Source: a virus (Duplodnaviria; Caudoviricetes). Taken from it: a DNA stretch of 46,961 nt. Both the position numbers and the translations under genes were made by a program. Below, in pieces: positions 1,535 to 46,959 of the stretch. The notes beneath the pieces were generated by a model. The model did no database searches. It was not told the DNA's origin and saw only the letters and a program-made list of their open reading frames with translations. Location: positions 1-46,961 of the IMG/VR virus record IMGVR_UViG_3300014208_000533; one strand, given 5' to 3'. The stretch's first letter is position 1, and each line of letters opens with the position of its first letter.

Positions 1535-2491
1535 TTATTCCTCGTCATCGTGCCAAGACGGCACAGGCGCAAAATGCTCCACCAGCCAGGAAAGCGGACG
1601 CACCGCTTGCGGCCACTTGTCGTTCAGCCACAAATCTCGCGAGTAGGATCTGGCCGCGTCGACCTGTTTCACGGAGATTGGGTACGGCCAGGACTCGCCC
1701 CCATCCCTACTGAAATTGCCTGTGCGGAAAAGATGAGCGACCCAGGTGCCGAGATGAGTGACCATCTTGCCGCCGGAGAGCCAGCTTTTGCACGCAAGCT
1801 CGGTTCCGTACTGTCCCCACGAACCATGCTGCTCGTCCATGCCTCCCAGCTTCCAGAATCGCTCCCGCTCCATCATGAAGCAGCACCCGATGCAGGACAT
1901 CGTCTCGATGATGCCTGTTTTTGCTTCCTCCACGACTTCCGGGCGCCTATGGTACTTTCGCCAATACTGGAAGTGCATTTCCTTGTCAAATCTCCACGCC
2001 ACCGTGGCCTCGTACTGAAATCTCGGCTGCCAGACCATGTGCATGTAGAATTCAGTTCCGCCGCACTCTGAACACTTAACGGGCTTTGTGCCTTGATAGA
2101 CTCGCTCCCCGCATTCGCTGCATGCCCAGTCGAAAATATGCAAGCGATGCATAGACGGTATCATTGTCCAGTCCGGCTGCATGTCCGCCATCAGCTTGAC
2201 GTCAAAGCCGTCTTCCGTGGAACAATGTGCGTCCATCTTCATTATGTACTTGGCTTGACTAAGCCTCGCTCCGGCATTGGTCGCCGCACGCTGCCCAATC
2301 GCCTCGGTAAAGTGGATCACCTGGAGCCGTGGGTGATCCGGCAATGGCGGATCAGGCCACCAACCGTCGCAAACGCAAATGCACTCTGTGTCTTCTCCGC
2401 TGTGAGATAGAACATCGTCGACAGTATTCAACATGAACTGTTCATTGCGACCTGGAACGATCACAGATAACGCCTTCGCGAGTCCCATCAT
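1535..2491 (-). CDS. GT-A/GT2-family glycosyltransferase with an inserted Zn-ribbon
   Basis: LSVIVPGRNE, GQRAATNAGA, KMDAHC (DxH), GCCFMMERERFWKLGGMDE, WGQYGTELACK; insert CSEC...CSEC. Confidence 0.85.
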   Translation of the reverse strand: MMGLAKALSVIVPGRNEQFMLNTVDDVLSHSGEDTECICVCDGWWPDPPLPDHPRLQVIHFTEAIGQRAATNAGARLSQAKYIMKMDAHCSTEDGFDVKLMADMQPDWTMIPSMHRLHIFDWACSECGERVYQGTKPVKCSECGGTEFYMHMVWQPRFQYEATVAWRFDKEMHFQYWRKYHRRPEVVEEAKTGIIETMSCIGCCFMMERERFWKLGGMDEQHGSWGQYGTELACKSWLSGGKMVTHLGTWVAHLFRTGNFSRDGGESWPYPISVKQVDAARSYSRDLWLNDKWPQAVRPLSWLVEHFAPVPSWHDDEE

Positions 2492-3132
2492 TTGTCCTTT
2501 GCTAGTACAAATACAACACCATCGCGGCCGACAACGTCCTCACGTCGAGGACTCCTGATGTGCGTCAGGGTGTCCACTATACTATAGTCAGCGATCTTCC
2601 CCCAGCCCGTCAGTAACTCCATGCACCCTTCAACTGTCGCGCTGAAGCAATCGACTTCTACAGACTTCGGGAACGGTGGCTGCCACCATTCGATGAAGCA
2701 GAATCCGGGAGTCTTGAGCGATTGCATCCACCTCGAAACAGCCAGTTGTGGATCGTAGGCATGATCCAAGCTGTTGCTGTAAACGAAGTCCGCCGCACCG
2801 ATCCATTCCGTCTTGATCTCGTGGTAGTCCCACTGGATCGTGTCAGGGAACTGCGTAGCCGTGGGCGAGATTTCCGTACCCAACACAACGCACCCAGGGA
2901 AGCGATCCTTGAAGTAGGATTGCTCTACGCCACGCCGTGTCCCGTGGCATAGTCCGAACGTCGGCGAAGGAATGCGACTCCTCAGATAGCGCGATACCTT
3001 CCCTATGGTGCGAGGACGAGCCCACTGGTGCCTCAGCTTCCTGACATTGGCAGCGCTCTGGCTCTTGACATACGCATCGTAGTCGAACGTGCCATCGGGC
3101 TTCAGGTAGTGATACTGGGCGTAACCGGTCAT
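2488..3132 (-). CDS. class I SAM-dependent methyltransferase-like protein
   Basis: GLCHGTRRGVE, VLGTEIS, ADFVYSNSLDH, LKTPGFCFIEW; ATGA overlap with the upstream gene. Confidence 0.7.
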   Translation of the reverse strand: MTGYAQYHYLKPDGTFDYDAYVKSQSAANVRKLRHQWARPRTIGKVSRYLRSRIPSPTFGLCHGTRRGVEQSYFKDRFPGCVVLGTEISPTATQFPDTIQWDYHEIKTEWIGAADFVYSNSLDHAYDPQLAVSRWMQSLKTPGFCFIEWWQPPFPKSVEVDCFSATVEGCMELLTGWGKIADYSIVDTLTHIRSPRREDVVGRDGVVFVLAKDK

Positions 3133-3680
3133 CGGACTCGCATCTGGAAGTGTCTCAGATCGTGCAGGTTGCTCGCGACTGTCGTCGCTGGACCGTAAGT
3201 GCATTTGTACTTGTACTGATACTTGTACCCGGCAATGGCCCTGCCAAAACGATACTTACGCTGCTTTGAATCGTCGGTGTCGTGAATGACGACGTAGTGT
3301 GCGTGCGCCAGTCGAGGAATATCGTGCCGTCTCCTTTCGTTGGGAGCGTGATCCACGAAGGCCACTTCGCACTCTCCCGACAGATCCACCTTGTCCCAGT
3401 CCTCCACGAAGACGGCCGTGTGGAAGTCTGTGGAGAAACGTCTGGCGAAGGCATACCACGCCGGATTGTTTTCAAAGGTCACGAGTTTCCGCTTCGACAC
3501 GAAACAGGCCCAGTGCAGGTAGGGCGTGGACACGTATCCGCATCCCAGTTCAAATACCGGACCAGCGGTCATCTCCATGATCCGCATCAAGACTGGCATG
3601 TACGAGCCACGACCCAGCTGTACCTGCGCATCAGTGTCCAATTGATCTACGATCACTGGCCGCCCTTCCTGTCTACGCAC
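3129..3680 (-). CDS. class I SAM methyltransferase-like protein (paralog of 6463..6987); start uncertain
   Basis: GPVFELGCGYVSTPYLHWAC, LVTFENNP, VAFVDH, YVVIHD. Confidence 0.7.
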   Translation of the reverse strand: MRRQEGRPVIVDQLDTDAQVQLGRGSYMPVLMRIMEMTAGPVFELGCGYVSTPYLHWACFVSKRKLVTFENNPAWYAFARRFSTDFHTAVFVEDWDKVDLSGECEVAFVDHAPNERRRHDIPRLAHAHYVVIHDTDDSKQRKYRFGRAIAGYKYQYKYKCTYGPATTVASNLHDLRHFQMRVR

Positions 3681-4906
3681 ATTACCCCCTCGGCCGTATA
3701 AGTCCAGTCCTTGTATGTTGTCTCAAAATGCTTCCATGCGTCGACGATCTGCTGGTTCGTCAGAGACGACGTGCGTATGTTGCCGTAATACTCGCCTGGA
3801 CGACCCTTGTAGAAGGAGTATTCCAGCGGCACTGAATCCCACTTGATGTCGTACTTGTCCCTGTTCTCGTAAATTGGGCTCCCTGGATACGGCTGGAATA
3901 TCTTGCAGTCGATGTCGTCGAGCTGTGCCTCGCGGAGAAAGGTTTCCGTCTCCTTCAGTGTCTCCTCGCTCTCGCCCGGCAATCCGACGATGAAAAACGC
4001 CTTCACGAACATGCCCCGATCCTTGAGCATGGCTATGGCTTCACGCATCTGCGACGTCGTCTCGGATTTGTTGATGTTCTTCAGGATGGTATCCGAGCCC
4101 GACTCGACTCCAATGCCAACACCGACACACCCGGAGTCAATCATCATGTCGATGAAGTCGGCTCCGTATTTGACAACCAGATCCGCCCGAACGAGGCAGC
4201 GCCAGATAATCCCCTGCTTCTTCAGGTAGTGGCACACCTTGATTGTGCGTTGCTTGTTCAGTGTGAAGATGTCTTCCGGAAAGGCGATCGCATCGTATCC
4301 ACACTCGTTGTGCAGTATGCCCAGTTCCTCGATGATTCGTTCTGCGCTATTCAGCCGCACCCTGTCATGGTTCTTTGAGCAGAACCCGCAATGAAATGGG
4401 CAGCCACGGGAACCCATAACAGTGGTGGCTTGCCTGTCGTGTAAACGAAACCGATAGCTCTTGATGTCCACTAGAGTTCTGTCGGGAATCGGGTATTCAT
4501 CCAGCGGCAAGCTCTCTGCGTAAATGACGTTCTCTTTCCCGAAGAATGCCTCAGACGCCGCATTCTCTCCGTCGCCGACGACCGTGCAATCAAATCCACT
4601 AATCCACGGATCCAGCGGCACCAGGGTGGCGTGAGGGCCTCCAATCACCACCCGGGCCTTCTTGTTCGCGTGTTTGATTCTGGCCAGGCAGTCCACGGCC
4701 ACGGGGTACTCTGGACTCGTTGGGCCGAATCCGTAGTAGTCATAGCCCAACGGAAGTTGCTCGATGTCGCCATCGTAGAGCACGACATCGTGACCGTCGC
4801 GTTTCAGGCCAGCGCCTACGGCCATTAGGCCGAGCGGAGGAAATGCACGCTCGTCAATCAGGAATGGAGACGGGCATCGTACCAAACATATCGTCATAGT
4901 TGGCAT
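3653..4906 (-). CDS. B12-binding-domain radical SAM protein
   Basis: PPLGLMAVGA, VIGGPHAT, GDGE, SRGCPFHCGFC (CxxxCxxC), GVESGS, FFIVGLPGES, PYPGSP. Confidence 0.9.
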   Translation of the reverse strand: MPTMTICLVRCPSPFLIDERAFPPLGLMAVGAGLKRDGHDVVLYDGDIEQLPLGYDYYGFGPTSPEYPVAVDCLARIKHANKKARVVIGGPHATLVPLDPWISGFDCTVVGDGENAASEAFFGKENVIYAESLPLDEYPIPDRTLVDIKSYRFRLHDRQATTVMGSRGCPFHCGFCSKNHDRVRLNSAERIIEELGILHNECGYDAIAFPEDIFTLNKQRTIKVCHYLKKQGIIWRCLVRADLVVKYGADFIDMMIDSGCVGVGIGVESGSDTILKNINKSETTSQMREAIAMLKDRGMFVKAFFIVGLPGESEETLKETETFLREAQLDDIDCKIFQPYPGSPIYENRDKYDIKWDSVPLEYSFYKGRPGEYYGNIRTSSLTNQQIVDAWKHFETTYKDWTYTAEGVMCVDRKGGQ

Positions 4907-4916
4907 ACCTCGTCGT

Positions 4917-5669
4917 CTATTGCGTGTAGCGAGGATGTCTGAACCAGTAATTACGATCCGTTTTTCTCGTCAGTCCGTGAAACAAATCAAACGGGTTGTA
5001 ATCCACATCCCCGCAGAATTGTCCGTTCGGGAACATATAAAGCACGGGCCGCTCCGTTTCGGACACCCGCAGCTTCCCCTGAACCTGGAGCGTCCTCCAT
5101 GTCCTCTTGAAGAGATTGTCTTCACCTTGAGGGTAGCATGCACGGAGAACACGCGCCTCGTCGTATCCGCCTATCTGCTCATACACCGCCTTCCGCATCA
5201 CGTAGTGGTTTGGATGCGGAGGCAGTTTCGCGCCTCGCGATTCAATTCGGTTTCGCGGAAGGCCGTATTCCATCAGGACATTGCGATCTTGAGTCAACGT
5301 CCCGTCTTCTTTCAGGACCCCGAATTCCCTGCGGCAGCCCAGACGATCTTCGTCAAAACGCCTGGCTATTTCTACCGCCTCTCTGGATATGATGTAGTCG
5401 CCGTCCACCATGAACAGGTATTCGCCGCGGGCCAGCTTTGCCCCTGTGTTTCTGGCGATCGACGACGTCCATTCCCGGAAGTCGTTCGTCGCATGCATCC
5501 TGAAATTCTTCGGAGGATTCTCCGGCATCTCCAGGGGCGGAGTGCTGCCGTCGTCCATGAAGATGATTTCCACGTCGTCCGGATAATCCTGCTGGCGCAT
5601 GTAGATCAACTGCCTGCGGACAATCTCATGACTGTTCAGGAATGGCATGATAATCGACAGTCGGATCAT
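4917..5669 (-). CDS. GT2-family glycosyltransferase
   Basis: LSIIMPFLN, IIFMDDGS, ARNTGAKLARGEYLFMVDGD (DxD), IGGYDE, GED; ATG at 5669 overlaps the upstream TGA. Confidence 0.88.
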   Translation of the reverse strand: MIRLSIIMPFLNSHEIVRRQLIYMRQQDYPDDVEIIFMDDGSTPPLEMPENPPKNFRMHATNDFREWTSSIARNTGAKLARGEYLFMVDGDYIISREAVEIARRFDEDRLGCRREFGVLKEDGTLTQDRNVLMEYGLPRNRIESRGAKLPPHPNHYVMRKAVYEQIGGYDEARVLRACYPQGEDNLFKRTWRTLQVQGKLRVSETERPVLYMFPNGQFCGDVDYNPFDLFHGLTRKTDRNYWFRHPRYTQ

Positions 5670-6439
5670 TGCGGGTTGCCTTCTCCGGAACAGTCCGGTG
5701 CATTCTGAACCACGGTCACATACTCCTTGGCGCTTCCACGTAAGCACGTACAGCAGTACGGATGGTTTCTTCGCCCGGTTGTATGCGCCAGGACTTCGTT
5801 CAGCTTCTGTTTACCATTCCAAAGTTTTTCCAGTGGAGAGTCGTATACGTTCCCGAGACCGAAGTGTGGAATCATCTCCTGGCAGCAGGCGAGGAAGTCA
5901 CCACGATGATTGACGGCTAGATTGCGAGATGGATTTGGGCACCGCCTGTCTATGAGCGTGCCCAATTCCTCGTCGTCGCCCTCGAAACAATGCACTCCGA
6001 AATGCAGGCCGTTCGTAAAGCGAATGCGTGTCTTGGCAAACCAGCTTTGGGTCATTGACTTACGAGCTTCGCTATTGTCGTCATACGGTGAGACGTTGAT
6101 GTAATCGAAGCATGCATCAAGCGATATGGCCATCGCTTGATTTAGAAAGTCGCCGTTCGTAGCGAACATCACGGGACTGAATCCGAGTTGTTTCGCATAC
6201 CGGCCGAAAGCTGGAAGTCGCGTGTCAAGAAGTGGTTCGTTGTAAAAATTGAAGCAGATTTTCCCGCGATACCCCATGCCAACTGCTTGGCCGAGAATTC
6301 CATACACCATGGACGTCGGCATAAAGTTCTGCGTGAACCACGGCTTTATGTCGTCGCGTTGTGGGTATATCTGGCGCAGGCAGGTAGCGCACCTACGATT
6401 GCAGTACGACGACGTTTCGATCGACAGTCTGTAGAACAT
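5666..6439 (-). CDS. radical SAM protein with SPASM/twitch-like C-terminal domain
   Basis: IETSSYCNRRCATC, YNEPLLD, ATNG, C-terminal CPNP...GDFLACC...LGNV...CCTC. Confidence 0.88.
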   Translation of the reverse strand: MFYRLSIETSSYCNRRCATCLRQIYPQRDDIKPWFTQNFMPTSMVYGILGQAVGMGYRGKICFNFYNEPLLDTRLPAFGRYAKQLGFSPVMFATNGDFLNQAMAISLDACFDYINVSPYDDNSEARKSMTQSWFAKTRIRFTNGLHFGVHCFEGDDEELGTLIDRRCPNPSRNLAVNHRGDFLACCQEMIPHFGLGNVYDSPLEKLWNGKQKLNEVLAHTTGRRNHPYCCTCLRGSAKEYVTVVQNAPDCSGEGNPQ

Positions 6440-6462: not shown

Positions 6463-6987
6463 CTACCGCTGAAGAAAACCAGTGACATCGTGCAGATTGC
6501 TGAAGATGCTCGTGTGGGGAAATGCGTCCTTGTACTCGAACTGGTATCGAAATAGTGAACTAGACTTCGACAGGCCGTACTTGCGGTCGTTGCGACCCTC
6601 CGAGTCATGGCAGACGACGTATTCGGCATGTGCCAGTCGGCCAAGTTCGATTCCGCGTCTCAGGCCGGGTTCATGGTCAACGAATGCCACGGACCAGGGG
6701 GCGCTGATGTCAATGGCGTCCCAGTCGTCGATGCAGTGCACCTCGTGAAAGTCCGTTTCATACGCTTTCAGGAAATCGAAGAACTGAGGGTTGTTCTCGT
6801 AAGTGACCAACTTCCGTTTCGGAACCCAACACGCCCAGTGCAGTGGCGTCGTCGAGTACAGACCACACCCGAGTTCAAGTATCGGTCCTTCTGTTTCGGC
6901 AACTGCCTTCATCAACATCGGCAGATGGCTGCCGCGGTATGGTCCGAACCTCAATCCCACTTGGTTGCTCCTTTGTGTCGCTTCCAC
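6463..6987 (-). CDS. class I SAM methyltransferase-like protein (paralog of 3129..3680)
   Basis: GPILELGCGLYSTTPLHWAC, LVTYENNP, VAFVDH, YVVCHD. Confidence 0.7.
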   Translation of the reverse strand: MEATQRSNQVGLRFGPYRGSHLPMLMKAVAETEGPILELGCGLYSTTPLHWACWVPKRKLVTYENNPQFFDFLKAYETDFHEVHCIDDWDAIDISAPWSVAFVDHEPGLRRGIELGRLAHAEYVVCHDSEGRNDRKYGLSKSSSLFRYQFEYKDAFPHTSIFSNLHDVTGFLQR

Positions 6988-7628
6988 ATGCCCCTGGCCG
7001 ATCCCCAGGTCGGTAGTACATGCCTATCGGAACGGTTTGTGTGCGGGCTCGTGTAGTGCATTCCACGGTCGGTTTTAAGCGTTACCACTGCACCAAGATC
7101 AACCGACTCCACCCTTCCCAGTCCAGCAATGACTTTGTCGATTCGAAGCGTTTCGTCGCGACCGCTGAGTACGGCACGATCAACGGCGTTGGACTCTTCC
7201 TGCATCACGTCAAGAATTCGCAGCAGATGTTCGCGTGCCACAATGCCGGTCAGTTCGCGCATCCGCTTGCCGTGATATACGGCTTCGCCGCTCCAGGTGA
7301 CATATCCGTCCCGTGGATAGTAATAGGTGTCGTCGCGTGACGGCTGGAATTGGAAAAACGACGGAGGATATAGCGTGTCTGCCTCGCACACTGCCAGGAA
7401 ACGGCTTTTTGCAATCTCTGCACCGATCCTCAGTTGCATAAAGACATGCTCCGGCGACTGTTCGATCATCCCGACGCTAATGTTGTTGCCAAACTCGATG
7501 CGCTTGTGCGACACCGATACGATCGGCAGGTCTCCAGAATTCCTGCGAATCGTCTTTCGTACCGCTTCTTCAAGCAATGGATACTCTCTGTTGCAGGTGT
7601 AGTAAACCACCGTCATGTCTCGTAGCAT
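6951..7628 (-). CDS. GT-A fold glycosyltransferase-like protein
   Basis: TVVYYTCN, LPIVSVS, FLAVCEADTLYP (ExD); similar to the adjacent 7613..8362. Confidence 0.7.
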   Translation of the reverse strand: MLRDMTVVYYTCNREYPLLEEAVRKTIRRNSGDLPIVSVSHKRIEFGNNISVGMIEQSPEHVFMQLRIGAEIAKSRFLAVCEADTLYPPSFFQFQPSRDDTYYYPRDGYVTWSGEAVYHGKRMRELTGIVAREHLLRILDVMQEESNAVDRAVLSGRDETLRIDKVIAGLGRVESVDLGAVVTLKTDRGMHYTSPHTNRSDRHVLPTWGSARGMWKRHKGATKWD

Positions 7629-8362
7629 TCCTGCTCCATATCCATGATGCCCCGGTTGAACACGTCTGCGATGTCGGCCGCTCTTCCCCAGTATGGAATC
7701 TCGATCGCTTTCAGTTCACCCTGCTTCCTCCTCCATGTGGGATGCTCCATGAATGTCGAGGACAATGCACAAGTGTGTGCGAGATTGACCATCCCAAAAT
7801 GGCTCCACCACTCAACGTGCTTGTGGTGCGACACTCCCATCCGTCGTTCGGAATCCTCTCGCCCTATTTCTCCTGGCCTCCTAAAGCCATTTGGGTATTT
7901 CTCTTCTCGTTCGTCCAGTGCCTCGATCATCAACTTTCGTGGGCATATCTGCGCGAATCCTCCCAGCGATCGAATCAGGGAAAACGTAGGTTCGGCGTGC
8001 CAGGACATAACCGTCCACCGCCCCATGTGATACGCCACCTCGTCAGGTTTCGGCCTGAATTTGCTGAAGTGGTCTGGGTGGTAAAGCGTGTCGTCCTCGG
8101 CTATCGCAACAAATTCCGTCTCAGCGACCTTGGCGGCTCGGTTCCATTCGCAGAACGTGTTCCAACTGCCCCACTCTGAAGTCTGAATGAGTTTGGTTTC
8201 CCCGACTCCGAGATCCATCGGCTTCATTGAGACGGTGATAAGTGGATAGTCGCCAATCGCCGTCAAGAGATGCCCGAGGTGGTAATCGACCCACCTCTTG
8301 GGCATCCGATTGGCGGTGAGGTAAATCACAGTCAAGTCTTTGACCATGGCTGAATTCGCCAT
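7613..8362 (-). CDS. GT-A fold glycosyltransferase-like protein
   Basis: LTVIYLTAN, YPLITVS, FVAIAEDDTLYHP; start overlaps the upstream stop (TAATG). Confidence 0.75.
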   Translation of the reverse strand: MANSAMVKDLTVIYLTANRMPKRWVDYHLGHLLTAIGDYPLITVSMKPMDLGVGETKLIQTSEWGSWNTFCEWNRAAKVAETEFVAIAEDDTLYHPDHFSKFRPKPDEVAYHMGRWTVMSWHAEPTFSLIRSLGGFAQICPRKLMIEALDEREEKYPNGFRRPGEIGREDSERRMGVSHHKHVEWWSHFGMVNLAHTCALSSTFMEHPTWRRKQGELKAIEIPYWGRAADIADVFNRGIMDMEQECYET

Positions 8363-8571
8363 TACGTTGATGATGGCGACTGAGTGTGCGACGGCGTCTG
8401 GGACGGCGTGCGGGAGACCGTGTGCGACGGGGTCGCCGATACCGTGTGAGACGGAGACTGAGTATGGGATGGAGTCTGCGAAGGAGTGCGGGACACCGTG
8501 TGGGATGGGGTAGCCGAGACGGTGTGGGACGGCGTGGCCGACACCGTGTGGGACGGTGTATTGGATGCCGA
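8362..8571 (-). repeat. coding tandem repeat (TPSHTVSA/R)n containing a duplicated 26-aa block
   Basis: translation ...SASNTPSHTVSAT[PSHTVSATPSHTVSRTPSQTPSHTQS]x2PSST*. Confidence 0.95.
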
Positions 8572-8979
8572 CGTATCGACGGCGATGGTCACGGCTTCCT
8601 GAGTGATCGGCAGGACGATCCAGCTCGTCCCATCGCAGATCGCAAGCAGACCGGCACCGATCCTCTCGTTTGCCGTTATGATGCCGAAGGTGTCTGCCGT
8701 CAGGTCGTTGAAGACGACAAGTTCACCAGTAGCTCCGGCGACGACCATGTCATAGTTGGCGACGTTCAAAAACAGCACCCAGTTGCCGGAGTACACCGAC
8801 GATACGGTAGGCAGAGTGAAGATTGTCGTTGTGGTGCCGCCGCGGGTCGTGAACACCGTTCCGAAGTCGCCCTCAGTAATGGTGTAGCTGGCAGTTTTGG
8901 CCGCAACCTTCATCTTCGGACGAACGAATCCGCCATCGACAGCGGCATTCCACAAACGCATGATATTTTCGTGAGACAT
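8362..8979 (-). CDS. virion (decoration-type) protein with an (S/T)-X repeat C-terminal tail
   Basis: MSHENIMRLWN... is a clear paralog of 9006..9419, plus a 69-aa TPSHTVSA tail. Confidence 0.8.
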   Translation of the reverse strand: MSHENIMRLWNAAVDGGFVRPKMKVAAKTASYTITEGDFGTVFTTRGGTTTTIFTLPTVSSVYSGNWVLFLNVANYDMVVAGATGELVVFNDLTADTFGIITANERIGAGLLAICDGTSWIVLPITQEAVTIAVDTSASNTPSHTVSATPSHTVSATPSHTVSRTPSQTPSHTQSPSHTVSATPSHTVSRTPSQTPSHTQSPSST

Positions 8980-9005: not shown

Positions 9006-9419
9006 TTAGGCCGAAGTGACGGCAATGGTCTGCGTTTCCATGGAAAACGGGACCACCACCCAACTCGTTGAATCGGAAATCGCCAGAAACGCGCCGCCGA
9101 TCTTTTCACTGGCTTGCGAGAAGGCGATGGCGTCAGCGGTCAGGTCGTTAAACACGACCAGCCCCTCGTCTGCGCCGGCGACGGTCATGTTTTGATCGGC
9201 CACGTTGACGAACAGCACCCAGTCGCCCTTGTTCACCGCAGATGCCGCAGGCAGAGTGAACGTGACGGCAGCACCAGCGCCACGAGTCGTGAGCACTGAG
9301 CCGAAGTCGTCCGGCGTCACGGTATAGCTGGCTGTTTTGGCGATGATGTTGAGTGCGGGACGGACGTTCCCGCCGTCAACGCAATCGTTCCACATCCGCA
9401 TGGTATTTTCGGCACTCAT
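9006..9419 (-). CDS. virion (decoration-type) protein, tail-less paralog
   Basis: AKTASYTVT..DFGSVLTTRGA..VTFTLPAA beta-rich domain; AAGGAG RBS; downstream of the capsid gene. Confidence 0.8.
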   Translation of the reverse strand: MSAENTMRMWNDCVDGGNVRPALNIIAKTASYTVTPDDFGSVLTTRGAGAAVTFTLPAASAVNKGDWVLFVNVADQNMTVAGADEGLVVFNDLTADAIAFSQASEKIGGAFLAISDSTSWVVVPFSMETQTIAVTSA

Positions 9420-22454: not shown

Positions 22455-22469
22455 ATGAGAGGTGAGAAC

Positions 22470-23753: not shown

Positions 23754-23778
23754 CAACCATTTGATGCGAGGTGAGACG

Positions 23779-25011: not shown

Positions 25012-25175
25012 CCGTCCCCCGAGGAACTACGCCCCGCCCCGTGGCATCGTTACGGGGCGCCCGCCCGCTCCCTGGCTCAGGGGGCGAACGGGCCTTACCG
25101 CCGCCCAAGCAACCGCGCTCGGCGGCAGATCCACAACCCGCCCTCCGTGCTGAGGGCCAACCCCGAGGTGAGAGA

Positions 25176-25355: not shown

Positions 25356-25447
25356 CCCCCCCACCCCCGCAGCGCACCGCCAGGAGCCGCGACCTGGCCG
25401 GGGACTTGCCGACCGACTACCGGAAGGCGTTTTCAGGAGGTGAGAGC

Positions 25448-25759
25448 ATGGGACGGCTTGCAAAAACATTGGCGCGATGGGACAGGACAGAAGGCGCGGC
25501 GACAAAGCTGGAGCAGGCAATCTACCGCCTGGCTCGCGACGTATTCGCTGGCGGTTACTACGACACGGCCCAGATGGACGCAGACGCGGCGGCGCGCAAG
25601 TACGCCAAGGCAGTCGCCCACGCCACGCACACTGGAGGCGATGAACTCATCCCCGAGATCGTAGCCGACCGGGTGGCGAGGACTGTCACTGTTCGTTGGA
25701 TCGACGCCTACGGAAACCCATACACGATCTGGACAATCACGCCCGAGACGATTGACTGA
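25448..25759 (+). CDS. hypothetical protein
   Basis: GGAGGTGAGA RBS; MGRLAKTLARWD... Confidence 0.65.
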   Translation: MGRLAKTLARWDRTEGAATKLEQAIYRLARDVFAGGYYDTAQMDADAAARKYAKAVAHATHTGGDELIPEIVADRVARTVTVRWIDAYGNPYTIWTITPETID

Positions 25760-25827: not shown

Positions 25828-26706
25828 CTACAGCACTCCCAACGAATCCAGGTAAGCATCTCCCTCACTGATCGGCGCTCTTCTCTCAATATCGGTGGGT
25901 GTTGCATGACCCTTTTCGGCAAACCCGATCAACCGGGTAAACAAATCCCGCCGGCTGCCTGGCGGGCACTGTGCGTATTCTTCCGCGATCATCACGGCCA
26001 GGGGTGTCGGGGGCGGAGTGCTGGCCTTGCTAAAATCCTGTGTCGTGTAGCCCTTTGCCTCGTCTACCGTAATCCGCCGGAACTCGAAGCCGACCCATAG
26101 CCACGAGTCGCGAATCCGTTTACCCGGGTCGGTCTCCGTATAATTGGGGTCGAGAATATCATTGATCGAACCAACGTATCCAACGAATCTTGGCGGTGGA
26201 CCCATGGCCTTCTCTAGTGCCTCCTGGAACGCTTTCGCGTTGATGTTGATTGTGTGGGTCTTTTCAATGCGTAGCTCCTCTTGCAGTTCTCGAATCCGCC
26301 TCGCTACGTCCGATTGCAGGGCCTCGACGAACATTACCGAGGTTTCCGCCGACGCCCACATTTCGGCCATGGATCGCTCGCGATCGTCCCTTGGTCCGTC
26401 CTCGCCCTTGCTTTCGGCTTGCAATAGCATCCGCTTGCGGATCTGGTGCCGGAGTGCCGCGGCCAGTGGGCGAAGGCCGGTCAGTCGCAGCCGGCGCTCG
26501 ATGCCGACTTTCCACGCCCGGTATTCTGCCGTCTCTTCCGGGTAGGGCTCGGGTTCTGTTGGCGGCTCTGGTTCGGGCGGCGGTTCCGGTGGCGGTGGGT
26601 CCGGCTCGGGCTCCGGCGGCGGTGGGTCCGGTTCGAGCTTCCAGCCGCGACGGTGGATTAGGGTATCGAGAATCGTTTGCATGGGTGCGGGGGATTGGCG
26701 GATCAC
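25828..26706 (-). CDS. hypothetical protein with an N-terminal EPDPPPP repeat
   Basis: 292 aa, GTGA overlap with the giant gene stop; Pro/Glu repeat at about 26545-26640. Confidence 0.7.
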   Translation of the reverse strand: MIRQSPAPMQTILDTLIHRRGWKLEPDPPPPEPEPDPPPPEPPPEPEPPTEPEPYPEETAEYRAWKVGIERRLRLTGLRPLAAALRHQIRKRMLLQAESKGEDGPRDDRERSMAEMWASAETSVMFVEALQSDVARRIRELQEELRIEKTHTININAKAFQEALEKAMGPPPRFVGYVGSINDILDPNYTETDPGKRIRDSWLWVGFEFRRITVDEAKGYTTQDFSKASTPPPTPLAVMIAEEYAQCPPGSRRDLFTRLIGFAEKGHATPTDIERRAPISEGDAYLDSLGVL

Positions 26707-35700: not shown

Positions 35701-37735
35701 TCGATCGCCGCCAAGGCAGTCTGCCCCGCCGGAATCACCGAGAACGCCAACGCCTCGACGGCCAGTTGCTCCCATCCCGCTGGATCGTTGACGAGCAGTT
35801 TGCCCGTGGTGCCGTAGTCCTTCTCGATCCCCGTGACGCCGCCGGCAACGTCGGCCACCCGCTCCTCGAATATTTCTCCGAACATGCCGTTCCATCCGGC
35901 TTTGTCCAGGATCTCCTGAGCCCGTGCGGCGGTCCCACCCTTCGCCAGGAAACGGTCCAGCACGGCCGCCTTCATAGCCGCTGCTCGCTGGGCTATGGGC
36001 ATCTTTGCAAACGCCTGACCGACCCGGCTTCTCGCCAGGGCCTTGCCCGCAACGCCGACCGCAGCCCCGGCCCGCTCTGACCCCATTTCGATGTACGCCG
36101 CCCCGAATCCTTTTCCGAGCGCTTCCATGAACGACGGATCGTCGCCGGTAATCGCCGCCGTAAGCTGGCCGGTCTCGTCGCGAGTCAGGTCGTATTCCGG
36201 CATCCACTTCTCGGAGACCTTTTGGGCGACCAGGGGCACATTCATGGCCGTCTGCGCCCCGATGCCGGCGGCATAGCCAGCGGTCTTCACGGCCGCGGTA
36301 CGCAGGGCCTGCTTGCCTACCTGTTGACCCAGTACCTTTGCGCCAAGCTCTCGGCCGCGGCCCTGCCCCAGGTGAACCCGCCGGCAGTCATGGTGAATTC
36401 GACACCCATCCCCGGAAGGTGCGATACCAGATCCCACACCTTCTTGCCCAAGCCGCGGTCCTTGTTCTTCTCGGCAACGTCGATGGCACTCGCAAGAGTG
36501 AACCAATCGGAATCGGTCGCTTTGTCGGCTTCGATGTTTTTGACGGCGCTACGCAACGTCAGGAGATCGGCCGCCTCGACGGCTGTCCCGGCAAACGGAA
36601 TCCGCTTCAGCACGTAGGGGACAATGTCCAGTTGCCCGATGTCGTAGGCGTGACGGGCCACCATCGCTTCCGACAGGCTATCGTAGTGGTTGCGAGCAGT
36701 CGGTTCCCGCCTCCGCTCCTCGGTCGCCTTCATCTCTTCCGGGTGCAGGATCGGGCGGGTTGGCTTGCTGCTCCGCCATGCGTCGAATTCCGGATCAGCG
36801 CCGGCTGGGTTGGCCTTCAACCACACGTCGTAGGCTTCGTTGGCCTTGTCGAACAGCGTCTTCTTGTCACGCGGCAGTTCGCTGCCGTATTTCTGCCGGT
36901 ACTCCCGCAATAGGTTCTCCGCCCAGAACGATTCGCGTGGCTGGTCTTTCCTGGCAACGTACCCTGGCCTGGAGTTCAGGACCGCCGCATCCCTCGCGGA
37001 GGCACTTGCCGTCGGCTTTACAGCCAGGGGGTCCAGCCCCTTGGCTGCGGCCAATCGCTGCTTGTGTTCCAGGGTCGTCTCGGTCGCCCAGAGGCGGCCC
37101 AGGTCCATCTCCATCGCCGCGGTGTCTTCGTTGAATTCGCGCAGCGCGAGTGGATCGGTGCCCGGTTCCTTGGCCGCCCGCTCGGCCTCCTTCTTCCTGG
37201 CGGCAACAACCGCGGCCAGTCCTGTCGGAGTCACCTCCTCGGGCTTCACGACCACGGGGTTTCCGTCGGCGTCCTTACCGGAGAGGAATTCGGCGTACTC
37301 CTTCAGGCCCTGCTGGCCAACTGGCGTCGACCTGCGGAGCTTCTGTTCTGGGTCGGAGTCGTAGGCTTGAGCCCGGCCAGTCGCCTGTTCGCGGGTCAGC
37401 TTTCGGCGTTCGGCCAGGACGTTCTTGTTGAACCACCGGGCGATGGATTCGGGCTTGTACTCCGGGCTGAACGAGTATCGCTGTCCCTCGAACTCAAATT
37501 CCGTCTGGGCGGGCTGGTTCTGTTGCTGCGGCGGCGGTGCGATTGCTGCCTGCTGCGCGGGTGGAGTGGTCGCCTGCTGCGGAGCCGGCTGCCGTGGCGC
37601 TGGCGGTTGCGTCGGCAGAGGTTCAGCACGGCGAGTCGACGGCGACGGCGGAGCGTCCTGGGCGAGTTCCCACCCTTCAGGGATTGGCGACTCGACGACT
37701 TCCCAGCCAGGAGGCACGGGTGCAAGTCTCGACAT
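26703..37735 (-). CDS. giant polyvalent internal virion protein (ParB-like + Strawberry-notch/SF2 helicase + long helical C-terminus), split by a frameshift near 36350
   Basis: ORFs 36317..37735 and 26703..36506 join sensibly at GCC GAG AG CTT; VLDGQNRLKAA (ParB/Srx-like), GSSPGTGKT, LLLDEAH, YATATPFE, KGGTGLSYHD, LPWSG...QVSGRLAR. Confidence 0.8.
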
Positions 37736-41026: not shown

Positions 41027-41176
41027 TTACGTTGCGGACGGCGACGTTGTGTGCGATGGAGTTCTGGACACGGTGTGGGATGGAGTGGCAGAGACCGTGT
41101 GGGATGGCGTAGCCGATACTGTATGCGACGGTGTAGCAGACGGTGTATGGGATACGGTACTAGACGGGGTGTTAGA
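41027..41176 (-). repeat. coding tandem repeat (TPSHTVSA/R)n
   Basis: 49-aa strictly alternating S/T-X tail. Confidence 0.95.
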
Positions 41177-41491
41177 CGCCTCGTCTCGGACAGTCTGTGC
41201 GCTGATGTCCGTCTCGCAAGTGAATGTGTAGCGGCTTTTGATCACGCTACGCACCATGTCCGCGGTCGCCGTCTTAGTGACCGTCAGTTTGGTTGGGCGA
41301 TCAGCCGCAGCCGTGGCGATGTACGTGGTATAGAACTTCTCCAGGATTGCAAACATGATGTCGCGAATGTCGCCAGTGGTTCCGTCTGCATTCGCGGCAG
41401 TCATCTCAGGGAAGGATGCAATCGGAAACGTAACATTCGTTCCGTCTTCAGACCAACTTGCAAACCAGACGTTGGGAGTTTTGTCGAACAT
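41027..41491 (-). CDS. virion protein with an (S/T)-X repeat C-terminal tail
   Basis: GAGGA RBS; 154 aa ending ...ASNTPSSTVSHTPSATPSHTVSATPSHTVSATPSHTVSRTPSHTTSPSAT. Confidence 0.8.
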   Translation of the reverse strand: MFDKTPNVWFASWSEDGTNVTFPIASFPEMTAANADGTTGDIRDIMFAILEKFYTTYIATAAADRPTKLTVTKTATADMVRSVIKSRYTFTCETDISAQTVRDEASNTPSSTVSHTPSATPSHTVSATPSHTVSATPSHTVSRTPSHTTSPSAT

Positions 41492-41605: not shown

Positions 41606-42289
41606 ATGGCTGAAAGCAATTCTAACCAGTTGTCCTGCCACGCGAAAGACGAAACTGGCAACGTCTACGGGAAACTGACGGTAGTGGAGTTTGCAAGGTC
41701 GCAAAACAACATCTACTGGCTCTGTCGCTGTGAATGCGGGGCCATGACTACGGTATGCGGATCTAATCTCCGCACCGGGATCACAAAGTCGTGCGGTTGC
41801 GTACGGTATACCCAGGGAGGAGGGCATGGTACTACCGAGTATACGTCTTTGAGGGAGATGAAATCGCGATGCTATAACCCGAACGCAACCGGCTATGTGG
41901 ACTATGGCGGCAAGGGGACTGTTGTTTGCGAGCGATGGAGAACGTCCTTCGTCAACTTCCTGGCTGATATGGGGAAGAAGCCGTCTCCACGGCACAGCAT
42001 TGAAAGAATCGACAACGACGGACACTATTCGTGCGGCCACTGCAAGGAATGTCTTCGCAACGATTGGCCAGCGAACTGCCGATGGGCCACACGCGACGAG
42101 CAGGCTCGCAACAGAAGTAACACTCGTATGCTGACATTCAAAGGAGAAACCATGTGCCTTAAGGATTGGGCACGCAAGTTGGGAATATCGCAACACGCCA
42201 TAAGAGCGCGACTTGAGCGTGGTTTGCCACTCGTCGACGCATTGAGTTCCACAAAGTACGGAAAACGTCATAAAGTCTCTCGCAAATAA
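41606..42289 (+). CDS. free-standing HNH homing endonuclease, antisense to the tail operon
   Basis: AAGGAGG RBS; GKLTVVE..WLCRCECG..KSCGC, MKSRCYNP, YGGKG..VCERW..F..FLADMG, SIERIDND...NCRWAT..EQARN. Confidence 0.9.
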   Translation: MAESNSNQLSCHAKDETGNVYGKLTVVEFARSQNNIYWLCRCECGAMTTVCGSNLRTGITKSCGCVRYTQGGGHGTTEYTSLREMKSRCYNPNATGYVDYGGKGTVVCERWRTSFVNFLADMGKKPSPRHSIERIDNDGHYSCGHCKECLRNDWPANCRWATRDEQARNRSNTRMLTFKGETMCLKDWARKLGISQHAIRARLERGLPLVDALSSTKYGKRHKVSRK

Positions 42290-42296: not shown

Positions 42297-44960
42297 TCAG
42301 GGAGTAACCCACCCACCTCCAGAGTCAGCTAACGCGGTACTGAGTTGCGTCAATGCTTCAAACGAAGGATAGGCATCCGTTCGTCTCTCGGCAAAACCAT
42401 AAAGGCCGATGTACAACTGATTCCTCTCATCGAGCATATAGGCCATTAACTTCATCGTCTCCTCGTGCTTCGCCTGGATCCCCCTCAGTCGCTCTGCGGA
42501 TTCGGCCATCTTCTCCAGGATCGCCTTGTGCCTATGATCGGCCAGGGTGGATGCGTTCTGCATTGTCATGGACGAATAGCGTTCCTTGCCGGCGATAAAG
42601 CCCTTGACAGCGTCTTGGAGTTCGGACAGCACTTTGTCTCGCTCTGCCATTGCTACCCGGGAAATGTCCTGCTGGGCAGTGTGTTGCCTGTCGATGCCGG
42701 CGAGGTACTGCGCCTCGATCTGCTGCACCTGTTCGAGAAGCCGGTCTCGCTGGGTCGCCTCGGCCCGCCAGACGTCGACGGAAATCCCGTGCTCCTTCTG
42801 GATCCCGTCCAGCATCTGCAAAAGGACTCCCTGCACGGCCGCAAACAGTTGCTGCTCGACAGAAATGCCCAGCTTCGCAACGTCCGTCGTTGCTGCCCGC
42901 TCGCGGTCGAGCCCGTCCAGCACCAACCGGACCTCGTTCATCAATTGGTCGTGCAACTGAAGCCTGAGCGTCGAGTTAGCGACGATAATCTCCTGCTGAA
43001 CCGCGTGCTGCCGGTCTTCCGCCTCGGCGGCTTTGAGTCGCGTCTGCAACTGCTCGCCATAGAGCCGGTGCGTCTCTTCCTTCTCCCATTTCGCAAAGGC
43101 ATCCCTGAGTTGATACAGACGGTCGGCCGCCTCCATCGTGCGGACGACGACCTCGGTTGTCTTCACGTACAGTCCGGACTGAACCTCGATCCCCAGTCGG
43201 GAATTCGCGTCCTGAACACCCAAGATAGCCTGCTTGCCTCCCAGCGTGCGATTATGCACCTCCTGAAGCAGGGCATACGTTCCGGACACCTGGGCCGCCT
43301 GGTATCGCAGCATGTCCTGGCGAAGCGTATGGACACGCTCCTTGCCGGCCATGGTCTTATCCCGCATCTCCGCCTGTTGCCCGTAGAGGCGGTGCTGATT
43401 CTCCCACTTCTCGCGATTCAGCCGATCGTTCAGGGCTACGATCTCTTCGTTGTGATCGCGGGTGTTCCTGGCCGTAACGTCGATCGCCACTTGGCCGGAA
43501 TACAGACCCCTGTCTACCAGTTGTTGGAGTTGCGTCGATAGTGAGGCGGTGAACTTCTCGTTGATCCTCGCTAACTCTGTTGCACCAAGGTCGGTCAGGA
43601 ACGCCGTCGCCGTGTCAGAGTGAAAGTCATAGTCGGATTCCAGCAAGGCCAAGACCGTGTTGTAGTCCGTGGCGTGAGCAGTGAGCGTAGACGTGCCCTG
43701 GGCCACCAACGCATCGATTTCGGTCGATGTAGTGGTGTAGTCGGCCAGCATTGACGTCAGCAACGTCCCTATTTCCGACACGAACGAGTTCACGTCGTCG
43801 GTGGCCGTCGCCAGCAGGGCCGTTATGGTGGCCGCGTGGGCGGCGTATTGCGAGGCCAAGTCCGCCACCTGGACCGTGTAATCCGCAACGTGCGTTTCGA
43901 GGGTACCTTCTAGGTCCGATAACTCACCCAATGCCTTTTCTTCATGGTCCACGAAGTCGGTGGCCAGCAAGGCGATCGCGGTCGCATAGTCCAGCAGGAA
44001 CGCTGTAAGGGCCGTCTCCTTGTCGACGATCAGAGACTCCACCTCCGTTCGGGTAGTGTCTCCATACGTTTCCGGCTCCGCCAGCTTCGCGGCATGTGAC
44101 GCAAGATGCACGGACAGCGCCGCCACCTCGCCGGCCATCAGGGCCTCAATGGCCGTACCTGCCGCCTCCTGCTCCGAGTCCAGTTCCGTAAGTTTCGCGT
44201 CCTGATCTGAAATGAAGGTTGCCAACTGCGTCGTTGCGTTGGTGAGCAGCGTTCCGATCGTGGATGCGTGCGGAGTGTAGTTGGCGTCCAGTTCGAGTAG
44301 TTTCGCCGTGACATCGGCCAGGAAATCGGTGAGATAATTTCCCTGGTCGGTCAGCAGTGCTTCGATGATAGCGGTGTTGTCGGTGACGTTGTCTTCGAGG
44401 TCCGAGAGTTTCGCATTAAGCTCGAACAGGGCGCCGGAAGCGACTGCCGCTTCGGACACAAGCGTGCTCTGGTTTGTGTCGATCAGAGCGTCGACAGCAT
44501 CCATGTTGAAATCGAGGCTGGTGAGATAGATCATGGCGTGGTCATTCTGCTCCTCCGCCTGAGTGTCAAGATGCACTTGATTGGCAAGGATCAGTCCAGT
44601 CCAGTTTTCTATCACTTCGTTGTAGCGAACGGCGTTCGTTTCGGTCGCCAGGTTGTGCGCATCTGTCCAAGATTCTGTGAGTGACCGCAAAATACCAGCG
44701 GTTTGCAGCGACTCCCTAAACATCGCATAGTACGGCGTCTTCGGGGTCGTGGTCTCGTCGTAGGTAATGCCATGAATCTGCCAGCCTTGCGCCACCAGCC
44801 AACCAACCGCGTCGGCGGGAATGTTGTCGATATTCTGAGTCGCCCACCAAGCCGAATCATACGGATTGGCCACTATCATCGTCGGTATCATCAATTGACT
44901 CTGCGTAGGATGCAGAGCCGGCGGGGTCGTCACGCCTTCTTCCATTCCTGGTGTGCCCAT
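42297..44960 (-). CDS. long helical-repeat virion protein (tail needle/ejection-type)
   Basis: 887 aa, acidic A/T/D/L heptad-like N-half and Q/R/E-rich repeated C-half; follows the tail stabilisation gene. Confidence 0.6.
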   Translation of the reverse strand: MGTPGMEEGVTTPPALHPTQSQLMIPTMIVANPYDSAWWATQNIDNIPADAVGWLVAQGWQIHGITYDETTTPKTPYYAMFRESLQTAGILRSLTESWTDAHNLATETNAVRYNEVIENWTGLILANQVHLDTQAEEQNDHAMIYLTSLDFNMDAVDALIDTNQSTLVSEAAVASGALFELNAKLSDLEDNVTDNTAIIEALLTDQGNYLTDFLADVTAKLLELDANYTPHASTIGTLLTNATTQLATFISDQDAKLTELDSEQEAAGTAIEALMAGEVAALSVHLASHAAKLAEPETYGDTTRTEVESLIVDKETALTAFLLDYATAIALLATDFVDHEEKALGELSDLEGTLETHVADYTVQVADLASQYAAHAATITALLATATDDVNSFVSEIGTLLTSMLADYTTTSTEIDALVAQGTSTLTAHATDYNTVLALLESDYDFHSDTATAFLTDLGATELARINEKFTASLSTQLQQLVDRGLYSGQVAIDVTARNTRDHNEEIVALNDRLNREKWENQHRLYGQQAEMRDKTMAGKERVHTLRQDMLRYQAAQVSGTYALLQEVHNRTLGGKQAILGVQDANSRLGIEVQSGLYVKTTEVVVRTMEAADRLYQLRDAFAKWEKEETHRLYGEQLQTRLKAAEAEDRQHAVQQEIIVANSTLRLQLHDQLMNEVRLVLDGLDRERAATTDVAKLGISVEQQLFAAVQGVLLQMLDGIQKEHGISVDVWRAEATQRDRLLEQVQQIEAQYLAGIDRQHTAQQDISRVAMAERDKVLSELQDAVKGFIAGKERYSSMTMQNASTLADHRHKAILEKMAESAERLRGIQAKHEETMKLMAYMLDERNQLYIGLYGFAERRTDAYPSFEALTQLSTALADSGGGWVTP

Positions 44961-44963: not shown

Positions 44964-46058
44964 TTATCTCCATCTTCCGAAGTACATGACTTCCAAAATG
45001 ATCTCTTCGTACGCCCAGTCACCGGCGGACTCTAGCCAGATGCAGCACCACATAGACCGTGCCCTCGGCCAGCCCGTGCTGCTCCGCCCGGCGCTCCACA
45101 CCCCTGAACTCGATATGTACTGGTCGTAGTCGTTCCCGGCCAGCGATGCGGTGATGGCCAATTTGCCGTTTGCACATGCTTCTTCGGCGGAAGTTCCGGG
45201 GACGATCCGCCACGCGACGTCATCGCCTCCGGAGGCCATGATGCCGTGGATCGTCTGGATGAGCCCGAACTGATTTGGTGCCCCAAGGCGGATCGGACCG
45301 ACCAGGAGGTGGCTGTCGGTCGATGTCAGGTCGAACGGCCAGAACTGCTCGCGGGCTGTGTCGTAGAACCACGACGGGCCGGTCGTCAGGTGAATGTAGA
45401 CTCCGCGGTCGGGGTGGTAGTAGTCCAACACGCACGCCGCGTCAGATACTCCGGTCAGGTGCTCCGGAATTCTGTCCTCCGAGAGTGCCGTCAGACCGCT
45501 CCCGTCTGCTCCGACCGAATACAGGCCGTGGGAGGACAGGAAGTAGATCGTGTCGTGATTCACACACCACGCACTCGCTCCGATGATTCCGATCTTGTCA
45601 GAGATCCGACGGCGGGCACCAGTAACCGGATCGCCAGAGCACACCCAGGTTTCGTTGGCCGTGAAGCACAAGAGGTGCGCGTCCTTGTGCGGGACCACGG
45701 CCACTACGTTAGCGCCCGTCTCGCCGGCCAGCGATAACGGGAACTTAGTCGGGCGGGCCGTGTCGGACAGGTCAGCGCTCACGTCCGTGTCCGTGGAGTC
45801 ACCCTGCCTCGACGCCGTAATGATGGCCCCGGAGAAGGTTATCGCCCGGTCCCGGTAGACGGGCGAGCTTTTCGTGCCGGCCACCTGGGCCGTGAACGAG
45901 CCGCCGCGGAGACGATTCGTCAGGGAGTCCTCAAGGCGGGCGTTGATCGACCAGGGACAAGGATAGTCCTGGGCGCTGTACGACCGTTCGTGCGAGTAGC
46001 GACGGACCACTCCCATGGACGGGAACCGCAACTCGAATGTTTTGGGCTTGGACGGCAT
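44964..46058 (-). CDS. tail/DNA stabilisation protein (P22 gp10-like beta-propeller)
   Basis: LLCFTANETW..SGDP..RRISDKIGI, IYFLSSHGLY, LSEDRIP, WFYD. Confidence 0.7.
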   Translation of the reverse strand: MPSKPKTFELRFPSMGVVRRYSHERSYSAQDYPCPWSINARLEDSLTNRLRGGSFTAQVAGTKSSPVYRDRAITFSGAIITASRQGDSTDTDVSADLSDTARPTKFPLSLAGETGANVVAVVPHKDAHLLCFTANETWVCSGDPVTGARRRISDKIGIIGASAWCVNHDTIYFLSSHGLYSVGADGSGLTALSEDRIPEHLTGVSDAACVLDYYHPDRGVYIHLTTGPSWFYDTAREQFWPFDLTSTDSHLLVGPIRLGAPNQFGLIQTIHGIMASGGDDVAWRIVPGTSAEEACANGKLAITASLAGNDYDQYISSSGVWSAGRSSTGWPRARSMWCCIWLESAGDWAYEEIILEVMYFGRWR

Positions 46059-46061: not shown

Positions 46062-46820
46062 CTATACCTCGGTACCTCCGTTCCAGGTGGTGTATCCGTC
46101 CACCAAATCCAACACTCGCCGGATACTGGACCGGCCGCGCATCTGCACGTTTTTGCCGCCCATCGACCCCAGGTTCCGCGGCTGCTTGCGAAGGTCAATC
46201 GCGATATGGGCCATCAGGGAATCGCGGAACGCCTGCTCCTTTATAGTCTCCCCGTCTCGGAATTTCGTCTCCACCGCCGCCAGGCAGGCCGCCACGAACA
46301 ATTCCCCGTGGGCTGGCCCGCCAGGCGGATAGGGCCGGGCGTCGCTCAATTCGCGGACTCCGATCTGGTACACGGCCACCAGCTTGTACTCCGCATCCGG
46401 CGTGGGCTCCAGAACCAACTGCTGTTGCTGCTCCGACACACCATCGTGTGCGACCGACTCAATCGCAAAGCACGACGGGGTACCCTTGCTATCGGAATCG
46501 CCTCGCAACTGCATCAACCGGCTGGCGGGCAATTGACCAATTGAGCCGTATCCGTAGTGCTCTCCGTCAAAATGGATCACGTTCGGGATGAACTGCTCGA
46601 AGTCCAGGGGCAACGTGTACCGTCTCTGTCCGTCGGCGGTTTTCCACGACCATTTCGGACGCATCCACGACCATTGATGCTGCCCGTTGTGAATGACCCG
46701 GTCGACGCCCGTGCGGATGCAGTATTCCACCGCCGAACTCGTATTGCTGTCCCACGCGTCTTCGGCGGTTCCAATGTAGTAGGCGATTTCCGCCTTTATT
46801 GTGGAATATGTTACGCTCAT
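46062..46820 (-). CDS. head-tail adaptor / tail tubular protein A-like
   Basis: HQWSWMR, TADGQRRYTLPLDF, GTPSCF, LEPTPDAEY, HGELFVAACLA. Confidence 0.75.
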   Translation of the reverse strand: MSVTYSTIKAEIAYYIGTAEDAWDSNTSSAVEYCIRTGVDRVIHNGQHQWSWMRPKWSWKTADGQRRYTLPLDFEQFIPNVIHFDGEHYGYGSIGQLPASRLMQLRGDSDSKGTPSCFAIESVAHDGVSEQQQQLVLEPTPDAEYKLVAVYQIGVRELSDARPYPPGGPAHGELFVAACLAAVETKFRDGETIKEQAFRDSLMAHIAIDLRKQPRNLGSMGGKNVQMRGRSSIRRVLDLVDGYTTWNGGTEV

Positions 46821-46830
46821 TCCGATCTCC

Positions 46831-46959
46831 CTAAGTAGCAACAACCAAGCGGACTCTGGCTACTTCTGTGGAACTTTGGTTCTTGATCCAGATTTCGCCA
46901 ATTGTGGAAGCCGTCCCAGCCAGGGTGTCGATCGTCCCGTCTAGAAGTTGCGTATCGTC
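46831..46959 (-). CDS. 3' end of a truncated virion gene
   Basis: open frame ...DGTIDTLAGTASTIGEIWIKNQSSTEVARVRLVVAT* running in from the window edge. Confidence 0.55.
   Translation of the reverse strand, partial: DDTQLLDGTIDTLAGTASTIGEIWIKNQSSTEVARVRLVVAT

Follow-up and report, generated by a model that had tools for sequence, protein, structure and literature searches.

Alternating Ser/Thr tails on two proteins of an uncultured phage as candidate acceptors of phage-encoded O-glycosylation

Why do two phage proteins with unrelated folded domains end in tails that share an identical run of 27 residues? The question is raised by proteins A and B (Table 1), which are encoded in a 47-kb piece of the genome of a short-tailed phage, the whole of which was analyzed and is called the window here. 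The portal and scaffold genes, putative and named by position and weak hits, lie likewise on the minus strand. A search for circular closure of the window found none, and its end cuts a gene whose counterpart in the nearest relative comes before the adaptor gene; complete relatives have genomes of 68-78 kb. With respect to the host, a single member of the A-family cluster is labelled Planctomycetota, and the sole match in the genome collection was an untailed distant homologue in an Actinomycetota MAG.

Table 1. Features of the window discussed in the text, in order of position.
Feature	Coordinates	Strand	Description
c9	1535..2491	-	318 aa, GT-A; four-cysteine insert; candidate initiating transferase
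c8	2488..3204	-	Methyltransferase-like by eye only
c7	3129..3680	-	c3 paralogue; 50% identical to c3 orthologue
c6	3653..4906	-	B12-binding radical SAM enzyme
c5	4917..5747	-	GT2 glycosyltransferase, PF00535 E 2.7e-11; PDB hits GT2 enzymes
c4	5666..6439	-	Radical SAM/SPASM protein; no match in any related locus compared
c3	6463..6987	-	Small protein, putative methyltransferase; 93% identical in nearest relative
c2	6951..7628	-	Distant c1 paralogue; 25-28% identity to c1 homologues
c1	7613..8362	-	Virus-type GT-A-fold protein; start overlaps A stop codon; candidate second transferase
Protein A	8362..8979	-	205 aa: beta-sandwich domain and C-terminal (S/T-X)n tail
Tail of A	8365..8574	-	aa 136-205; alternating lane Ser/Thr in 35/35
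27-codon stretch of A	8479..8559	-	Peptide same as in B
Tail-less paralogue of A	9006..9419	-	137 aa; 58% identical over 134 aa
Major capsid	10497-11549	-	Named by position and weak hits
Terminase	15706-18750	-	
Protein B	41027..41491	-	154 aa: 104-aa domain and C-terminal (S/T-X)n tail
Tail of B	41030..41176	-	aa 106-154; alternating lane Ser/Thr in 25/25
27-codon stretch of B	41054..41134	-	Peptide same as in A
Head-closure gene	44964-46058	-	
SU10-type adaptor	46062-46844	-	

Some other features of the window deserve mention in their own right. The terminase gene contains an intein at aa 635-952, and a complete 239-aa HNH endonuclease gene (15935-16654, minus strand) is nested within it in another frame of the same strand, the intein frame remaining open across the nested gene. 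A plus-strand island (18870-25759) lies between the terminase and the large virion genes and encodes, among small ORFs, a tyrosine integrase-family protein and a GP88-family protein. A 3267-aa ORF (26703-36506, minus strand) with a helicase-like domain at its centre is preceded by two Pro/Gln-rich proteins and sits where internal virion (ejection) proteins would.

The initial annotation reported the shared peptide, and the longest common substring of A and B is indeed exactly those 27 aa; both tails open with ASNTPS, B ending in SPSAT and A in SPSST. When the DNA of the two tails was aligned, 14 of the 81 bases of the stretch differed, all of them silently and with no non-synonymous change. 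Thirteen of the differences fall at third positions and one at the first position of an Arg codon, so that 13 of the 27 codons differ, and the longest exact DNA match between the A and B genes is 14 nt. The minus-strand frame is the only one fully conserved (27/27, the best other frame reaching 23/26). Among the eight repeat units, third-position agreement (2.7/7) was at the chance level expected from genome codon usage (2.59). When the tails were shuffled, 5000 times for each of four periods, the longest match never exceeded 13 aa; this null keeps composition and period and contains no model of two arrays built from one unit, a limit that leaves the real question of why A and B use the same unit.

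Three trivial or special origins of the repeats were considered and rejected. An assembly artefact or recent slippage is contradicted by the number of base differences, by the shortness of the longest DNA run and by a second phage with the same arrangement. Coding on the opposite strand is ruled out because only the minus frame is fully conserved and because this frame is fused to conserved domains. Diversification by an adenine-specific retroelement does not agree with third positions at which all four bases are found, nor would a strict Ser/Thr lane survive random change.

The N-terminal parts of A and B had been described as unrelated. This was confirmed, as BLASTP similarity appeared there only as an extension of the tail match and the predicted structures differ. 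A six-frame scan of the window for further tagged ORFs found tracts of at least 9 units only in A and B; the major capsid gene has none of this length, although a modification at a single site would escape such a scan. The distance of 32 kb between the two tails holds in this contig and is not general: in the nearest relative they are separated by 10.5 kb and belong to a single co-directional run, the enzyme cassette lying between the two. The tail-less paralogue of A sits directly upstream of A, and its model superimposes on the capsid spike of Pseudomonas phage Pa223 (9ny6_C) with Z 12.3 and rmsd 2.2 over 98 aligned residues; judging from this model, A is likely a capsid-spike-like head decoration. 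The model of B is well defined (pLDDT 92.7). Searched against the viral library, it found no counterpart up to E 0.001, which does not show a new fold; its best Z among 48,161 PDB chains was 3.5, and the family search gave no family hit. The earlier label of B as a tail-module protein is based on gene position only, its gene coming after the adaptor, head-closure and 887-aa genes. The last of these (42297-44960, minus strand) corresponds to a 389-aa version in the nearest relative, L001 (8149-9318), the two having their ends in common and a middle of variable length. Between the 887-aa gene and B an HNH endonuclease gene (41606-42289, plus strand) forms an opposite-strand insertion; in the nearest relative the counterpart of the 887-aa gene directly adjoins B, with no HNH gene between.

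Nine co-directional genes follow A, from c1 to c9. Structure matches of c1 in the Atlas were GT2 domains (TM 0.61-0.70). The c5 product is likely a chain-extending transferase from its sequence matches, and its PHROG label is GtrB-like. The c3 protein carries what we take to be a SAM-binding-like motif; it had no Pfam, NCBIfam or PDB hit, c8 had no family hit in the family searches, and neither c1 nor c3 gave a useful PDB sequence match. The c6 gene is present in 5 of 61 loci. When window positions 1535-8362 are set beside 12643-17788 of L001, the tailoring part is seen to be swapped while c9, c5 and c1 are retained. Twelve tailed relatives have a 203-aa methyltransferase-like gene that is absent from the window, which has c4, c7 and c8 instead.

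The product of c9 deserves closer attention. Pfam recognizes Glycos_transf_2 and Glyco_transf_7C in it. Searched as a single sequence against the PDB, its best hits were polypeptide GalNAc-transferases (E 2e-7), and with an 11-sequence profile the 15 best hits were all GalNAc-transferases (E 3e-12 to 2e-5), the best other transferase coming behind all of them at E 2e-4. Relatives of c9 are encoded in 232 viral stretches, and among the best 80 of these 232, which were examined, residues D87, H89, W225, H253, F255 and R256 are invariant (80/80). According to the available text of PMC4432651, manganese is bound in GalNAc-T2 by a DxH motif and a distal His (Asp224, His226 and His359); D87, H89 and H253 are their counterparts in c9. 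The Gal/GalNAc-T motif that includes Trp331 is also present: of 62 sequences, 61 have WG..G.E...K.W..GG and all 62 have HxFR, W225 being the invariant tryptophan. The peptide-pocket residues Phe280, Trp282 and Phe361 would correspond to F174 (74/80), Y176 and F255 (80/80), the Trp being replaced by Tyr; this mapping was made from sequence, by equal-length ranges and alignments with T1, T9 and T10, and the roles of the equivalent residues are those given in the available parts of PMC4432651 and PMC6994419. Glu334, a residue of donor-sugar specificity in the text available of PMC13071866, is replaced at position 228 of c9 by Tyr, Met, Phe, Gln or Val in 80/80. In addition, c9 has neither the lectin domain (no Pfam lectin family was detected) nor the N-terminal membrane anchor of GT27. 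Its catalytic domain begins near residue 8, and the part beyond the HLFR motif is only about 60 residues long, an architecture that recalls the lectin-less GT60 enzymes (PMC8724618, available text). From these sequence features c9 probably works like a mucin initiator but falls outside GT27. No cultured phage matched c9 among 50,697 records, and with an E limit of 1e-30 a search for c9-related protein clusters gave 300. Relatives of 500-1350 aa are frequent (P0137-P0142 and others), and several of them have more than one matched stretch, so that multi-domain fusions are common.

The tails of relatives show what is kept and what is not. Ser or Thr at every second residue is the constant, near-exact feature of 38 such tails: gaps between non-Ser/Thr residues are almost all even (32/32 in A and 21/21 in B), with p <=0.008 in each of the 38. 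The other, variable lane depends on the lineage, giving TPSHTVSA in the window, SPSTSPSD in L004 and TATSTAT types elsewhere. Consequently TPSHTVSA cannot be maintained as a fixed tag, since its His, Val and Pro vary even among close relatives. Histidine as a functional residue was dropped as a general feature on the grounds of its variation among relatives and its frequency, which is 26% of the variable-lane residues in L182 and no more than 3% in the remaining 60 loci. The tracts are portable, as had been proposed, with 100 tract-bearing ORFs in 55 sequence families, but they are not always C-terminal, being so in 48 of the 100 carriers. The initial annotation took the tail for a recognition tag that routes proteins to a modification machinery. 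With 35 and 25 hydroxyl residues in the alternating lanes of A and B, the tail is more likely the acceptor itself, and our favored reading, which the sequence evidence makes probable, is that the tail with Ser/Thr at every second residue is a dense O-glycan acceptor, copied between particle proteins and primed by c9.

Within a genome, tails on unrelated carriers resemble each other more than tails from different genomes do. The longest peptide common to carriers of different families has a median of 19 aa within genomes (15 pairs) against 5 aa between genomes (441 pairs), and in a wider set the values are 12 and 7 (53 and 4654 pairs). In the close set, 9 of 13 B tails had their best partner in the same genome, the four misses forming one group of related loci (L006, L007, L010 and L099) with a largely common signature; in the wider set the own-genome partner came strictly ahead of all others for only 19 of 65 carriers. 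In 8 of 11 genome pairs the shared stretches contain more identical codons than permutation would give, the window having 14 against 8.9 (p 0.026), and the range goes from 19/21 in L009, apparently a recent case, to chance level in L004. We read this as tails that were copied at different times and afterwards held by selection. Protein-level selection, which had been proposed instead of recent slippage, is thus upheld along with the silent differences, with the correction that copying at the DNA level is part of the story. The orthologous tails of L007 and L099 show pS 0.44 and pN 0.094, and their folded domains pS 0.49 and pN 0.068, so these tails are constrained about as strongly as the folded domain, and in nine orthologue alignments all six gaps are even in length and keep the phase. 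Compared with the window, the tails of several relatives diverge more than the folded domains (B against L187: pN 0.21 vs 0.13), mostly in the variable lane; tail alignments are uncertain owing to low complexity.

Tail type was then compared with gene trees, which were built with FastTree only. The c9 and c5 trees split six Pro-rich genomes from six Thr-rich ones (support 100 and 99), whereas the head-closure tree needs four changes of tail type, as shuffled labels do, and genomes G002 and G004 have a common capsid type and different tail types. Tail type, as far as these trees go, appears to follow the glycosyltransferases and not head closure. Because tail genes are often next to the cassette, agreement of the trees can result from linkage alone, yet matched tails also lie about 10 kb or more apart in L182 and L187 and far from the cassette in the window. 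The c1 gene is found in 42 of 51 Ser/Pro loci vs none of the 10 Thr-rich ones, the Thr-rich type being a single clade. The four Thr-Pro genomes with c1 (the window, L182, L187 and L196) make up a single clade of the c1 tree (support 100), in spite of being separated on the c9 tree and of having different head types. This association across different heads is one argument for a sequence-specific recognition tag, in which the exact unit would be read by an enzyme of the lineage such as c1, which then modifies the protein. Two others are the 55 non-repetitive residues common to different carriers in L094 on silently diverged DNA (25 codons changed), and the retention of TPSHTVS in L001/L002 as in the window, at a B-domain identity of about 70%. 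Nevertheless, residues of the variable lane change freely among close relatives (the His position to A, N or S), tail length goes from 8 to more than 100 units, half of the tracts are not C-terminal, three Thr-Pro loci (L217, L218 and L220) were seen without c1, and linkage could explain the c1 tree. We consider this alternative, the main refinement of the acceptor strip, unlikely.

Enzyme and tract largely occur together. A sense-strand tract of at least 10 units was found within 10 kb of the c9 relative in 71 of the 80 loci (the best 80 of 232) and in all 44 loci of at least 15 kb, vs none of the 132 control loci, 40 long ones included, the controls being loci of untailed A or B homologues and not random ones. 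After removal of near-copies, which left loci with a GC content of 0.35-0.69, the counts were 61/69 and, for those of at least 15 kb, 38/38. Phages with c9 in L255 (15026 onward), L226 and L233 carry 440-770 alternating units in very long proteins. The converse is weak: among loci with a Ser-Pro-Ser-Ala pattern a c9-like gene lies within 10 kb in 4 of 34, one of them a partial match, divided into 4 of 23 non-giant-virus loci and 0 of 11 giant-virus bins, and in whole records the figure is 4 of 27. The four positive loci have the longest tracts of the 23 (37-142 units vs <=28).

Tracts of a similar kind also exist without c9, which would suit tails that are structural strips, unmodified or modified by the host, and serve as spacers or homotypic A-B zippers, with a cassette acting on something else such as the host envelope or DNA and a co-occurrence due to linkage. 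Host surfaces or DNA are frequent targets of phage glycosyltransferases, the GtrB-like label of c5 points in the same direction, and identity between two proteins of one genome would suit homotypic pairing. On the other hand, the resemblance of c9 is specifically to peptide-acceptor enzymes, and the tracts accompany it on 55 carrier families over the whole GC range given above. Proline at each fourth residue would also speak against beta-zippers, and a C-terminal strip joins nothing. A purely structural role is improbable compared with that of glycan acceptor.

The tail is an addition that homologues may have or lack. The search with B gave 44 rows, consisting of 9 tailed homologues, 30 untailed ones, B itself, A and 3 tailed proteins of other families; in the A family 32 of 84 hits have a tail of at least 8 units. 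A tail on homologues in phages that lack glycosyltransferases had been named as the observation that would speak against the link. Instead, PF00535 was found in 10 of 13 tailed records, the three exceptions all being shorter than 10 kb, and whole-record searches of the untailed ones gave a match in 1 of 36, below the cut-off. In six near-complete records it was present in both tailed ones and in none of the four untailed. These counts support the proposed link of the tails to the glycosyltransferase cassette. On a quick tree of 123 rows the tailed B proteins fall into a single clade of 26 (support 98). Locus L100 encodes a B identical to that of L012, which is placed next to this clade, and has the same capsid-adaptor-closure-B order; this B is untailed, and the stretch from capsid to B holds no cassette gene. 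Tail and cassette thus appear to have been gained together, on the B tree in a single gain, so that the contrast represents one event. In L010 (1196-1624) a B homologue has a short tail whose end departs from the pattern, suggestive of a frameshift in the repeat or of an assembly error there.

With the tail as glycan acceptor, the locus could work as follows. The tails of A and B would be copies of one lineage-specific strip, in which alternation sets the hydroxyls on one side of an extended chain. In the host cytoplasm c9 would add the first sugar, of uncertain identity given the loss of the Glu334 equivalent, c5, c1 and c2 would extend the chain, and the methyltransferase-like and radical SAM proteins would tailor the glycan. 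The product would be a mucin-like brush on the capsid spike (A) and on a second particle protein (B), which most likely shields the particle or aids adhesion and hydration. A tail that suits the local enzyme set would occasionally be copied from gene to gene by recombination and then be kept by selection, and copying followed by selection would leave identical peptides on silently diverged DNA. Another modification of the hydroxyl lane (phosphorylation, methylation or acylation) or metal binding by the histidines is very unlikely: the resemblance of Thr-Pro and Ser-Pro motifs to kinase sites, the radical SAM and methyltransferase-like genes of the cassette and the frequent His in the lineage of the window speak for it, but no kinase family was found by Pfam among the 37 window proteins scanned, His is rare outside L182, and the tailoring genes vary, c6 among them, while c9 is constant.

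Few phages are so far known to glycosylate their virions with enzymes of their own. In mycobacteriophages the modified site is reportedly a terminal serine, and a study by Freeman et al. in 2023 reportedly describes O-glycosylation of capsid and tail. In mycobacteriophage Che8 and its relatives the capsid, the tail or the two together undergo O-glycosylation by phage-encoded glycosyltransferases, according to the available text of PMC11256854, PMC10877033, PMC11652166 and PMC12582341. The likeness to our case extends to one enzyme set for head and tail proteins, already described there. The acceptors named in those texts are the major capsid and tail tube proteins, whereas here the predicted acceptors are long (S/T-X)n strips on small accessory proteins, the major capsid having no tract, and the candidate initiator is GT27-like. 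In the serine-rich repeat proteins (SRRPs) of Gram-positive bacteria (Fap1, GspB, PsrP and SraP, with GtfA/B and SecA2/Y2) serine alternates with another residue as it does here, O-glycosylation is carried out by transferases of the same locus, repeats vary between strains and one species has three such proteins (PMC6973325, available text). The tails of A and B share with them a Ser, here Ser or Thr, at every second residue. No GtfA/B, accessory Sec, signal peptide or wall anchor was found among the 37 window proteins searched with Pfam and 12 with NCBIfam, in a contig that is incomplete, and the tails differ in being short, in using Thr and Pro and in ending the phage proteins A and B. The third comparison is with CAZy family GT27, the polypeptide GalNAc-transferases of eukaryotes, and the lectin-less protist GT60 pp-GlcNAc-transferases acting on mucin domains (PMC8724618, PMC4432651, PMC6994419 and PMC13071866, in their available text). 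Here c9 is alike in the DxH motif with its distal His, in the Gal/GalNAc-T Trp, in aromatic residues at the three putative pocket positions and in candidate acceptors rich in Ser, Thr and Pro, and it differs from GT27 in its length of 318 aa, without ricin lectin or anchor, in its four-cysteine insert, in the replacement of Glu334 and in the strict period-2 alternation of the candidate acceptor.

The feature is real and probably represents a variation on known phage virion glycosylation. Our literature search, which covered openly accessible papers, so that work beyond that scope, such as Freeman et al. 2023, may bear on novelty, found no paper that joins (S/T-X)n tails, a GT27-like phage enzyme and the sharing of tails between carriers. 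A bolder and more tentative proposal is that widespread uncultured phages use a portable peptide cassette as the acceptor of a cytoplasmic mucin-type O-glycosylation, each lineage having its own (S/T-X)n that can be copied onto any particle protein and that co-evolves with the transferases as a movable, orthogonal pair of enzyme and tag. If the tails are acceptors, many environmental phages, to judge from the number of viral stretches with the enzyme, coat their particles in this way, and the coating enzyme would be a soluble, lectin-less relative of the animal mucin initiators. Tails of 50-70 residues that are naturally portable would then offer a way to make mucin-like glycopeptides in the bacterial cytoplasm and to learn how acceptors are read by GT27-like enzymes.
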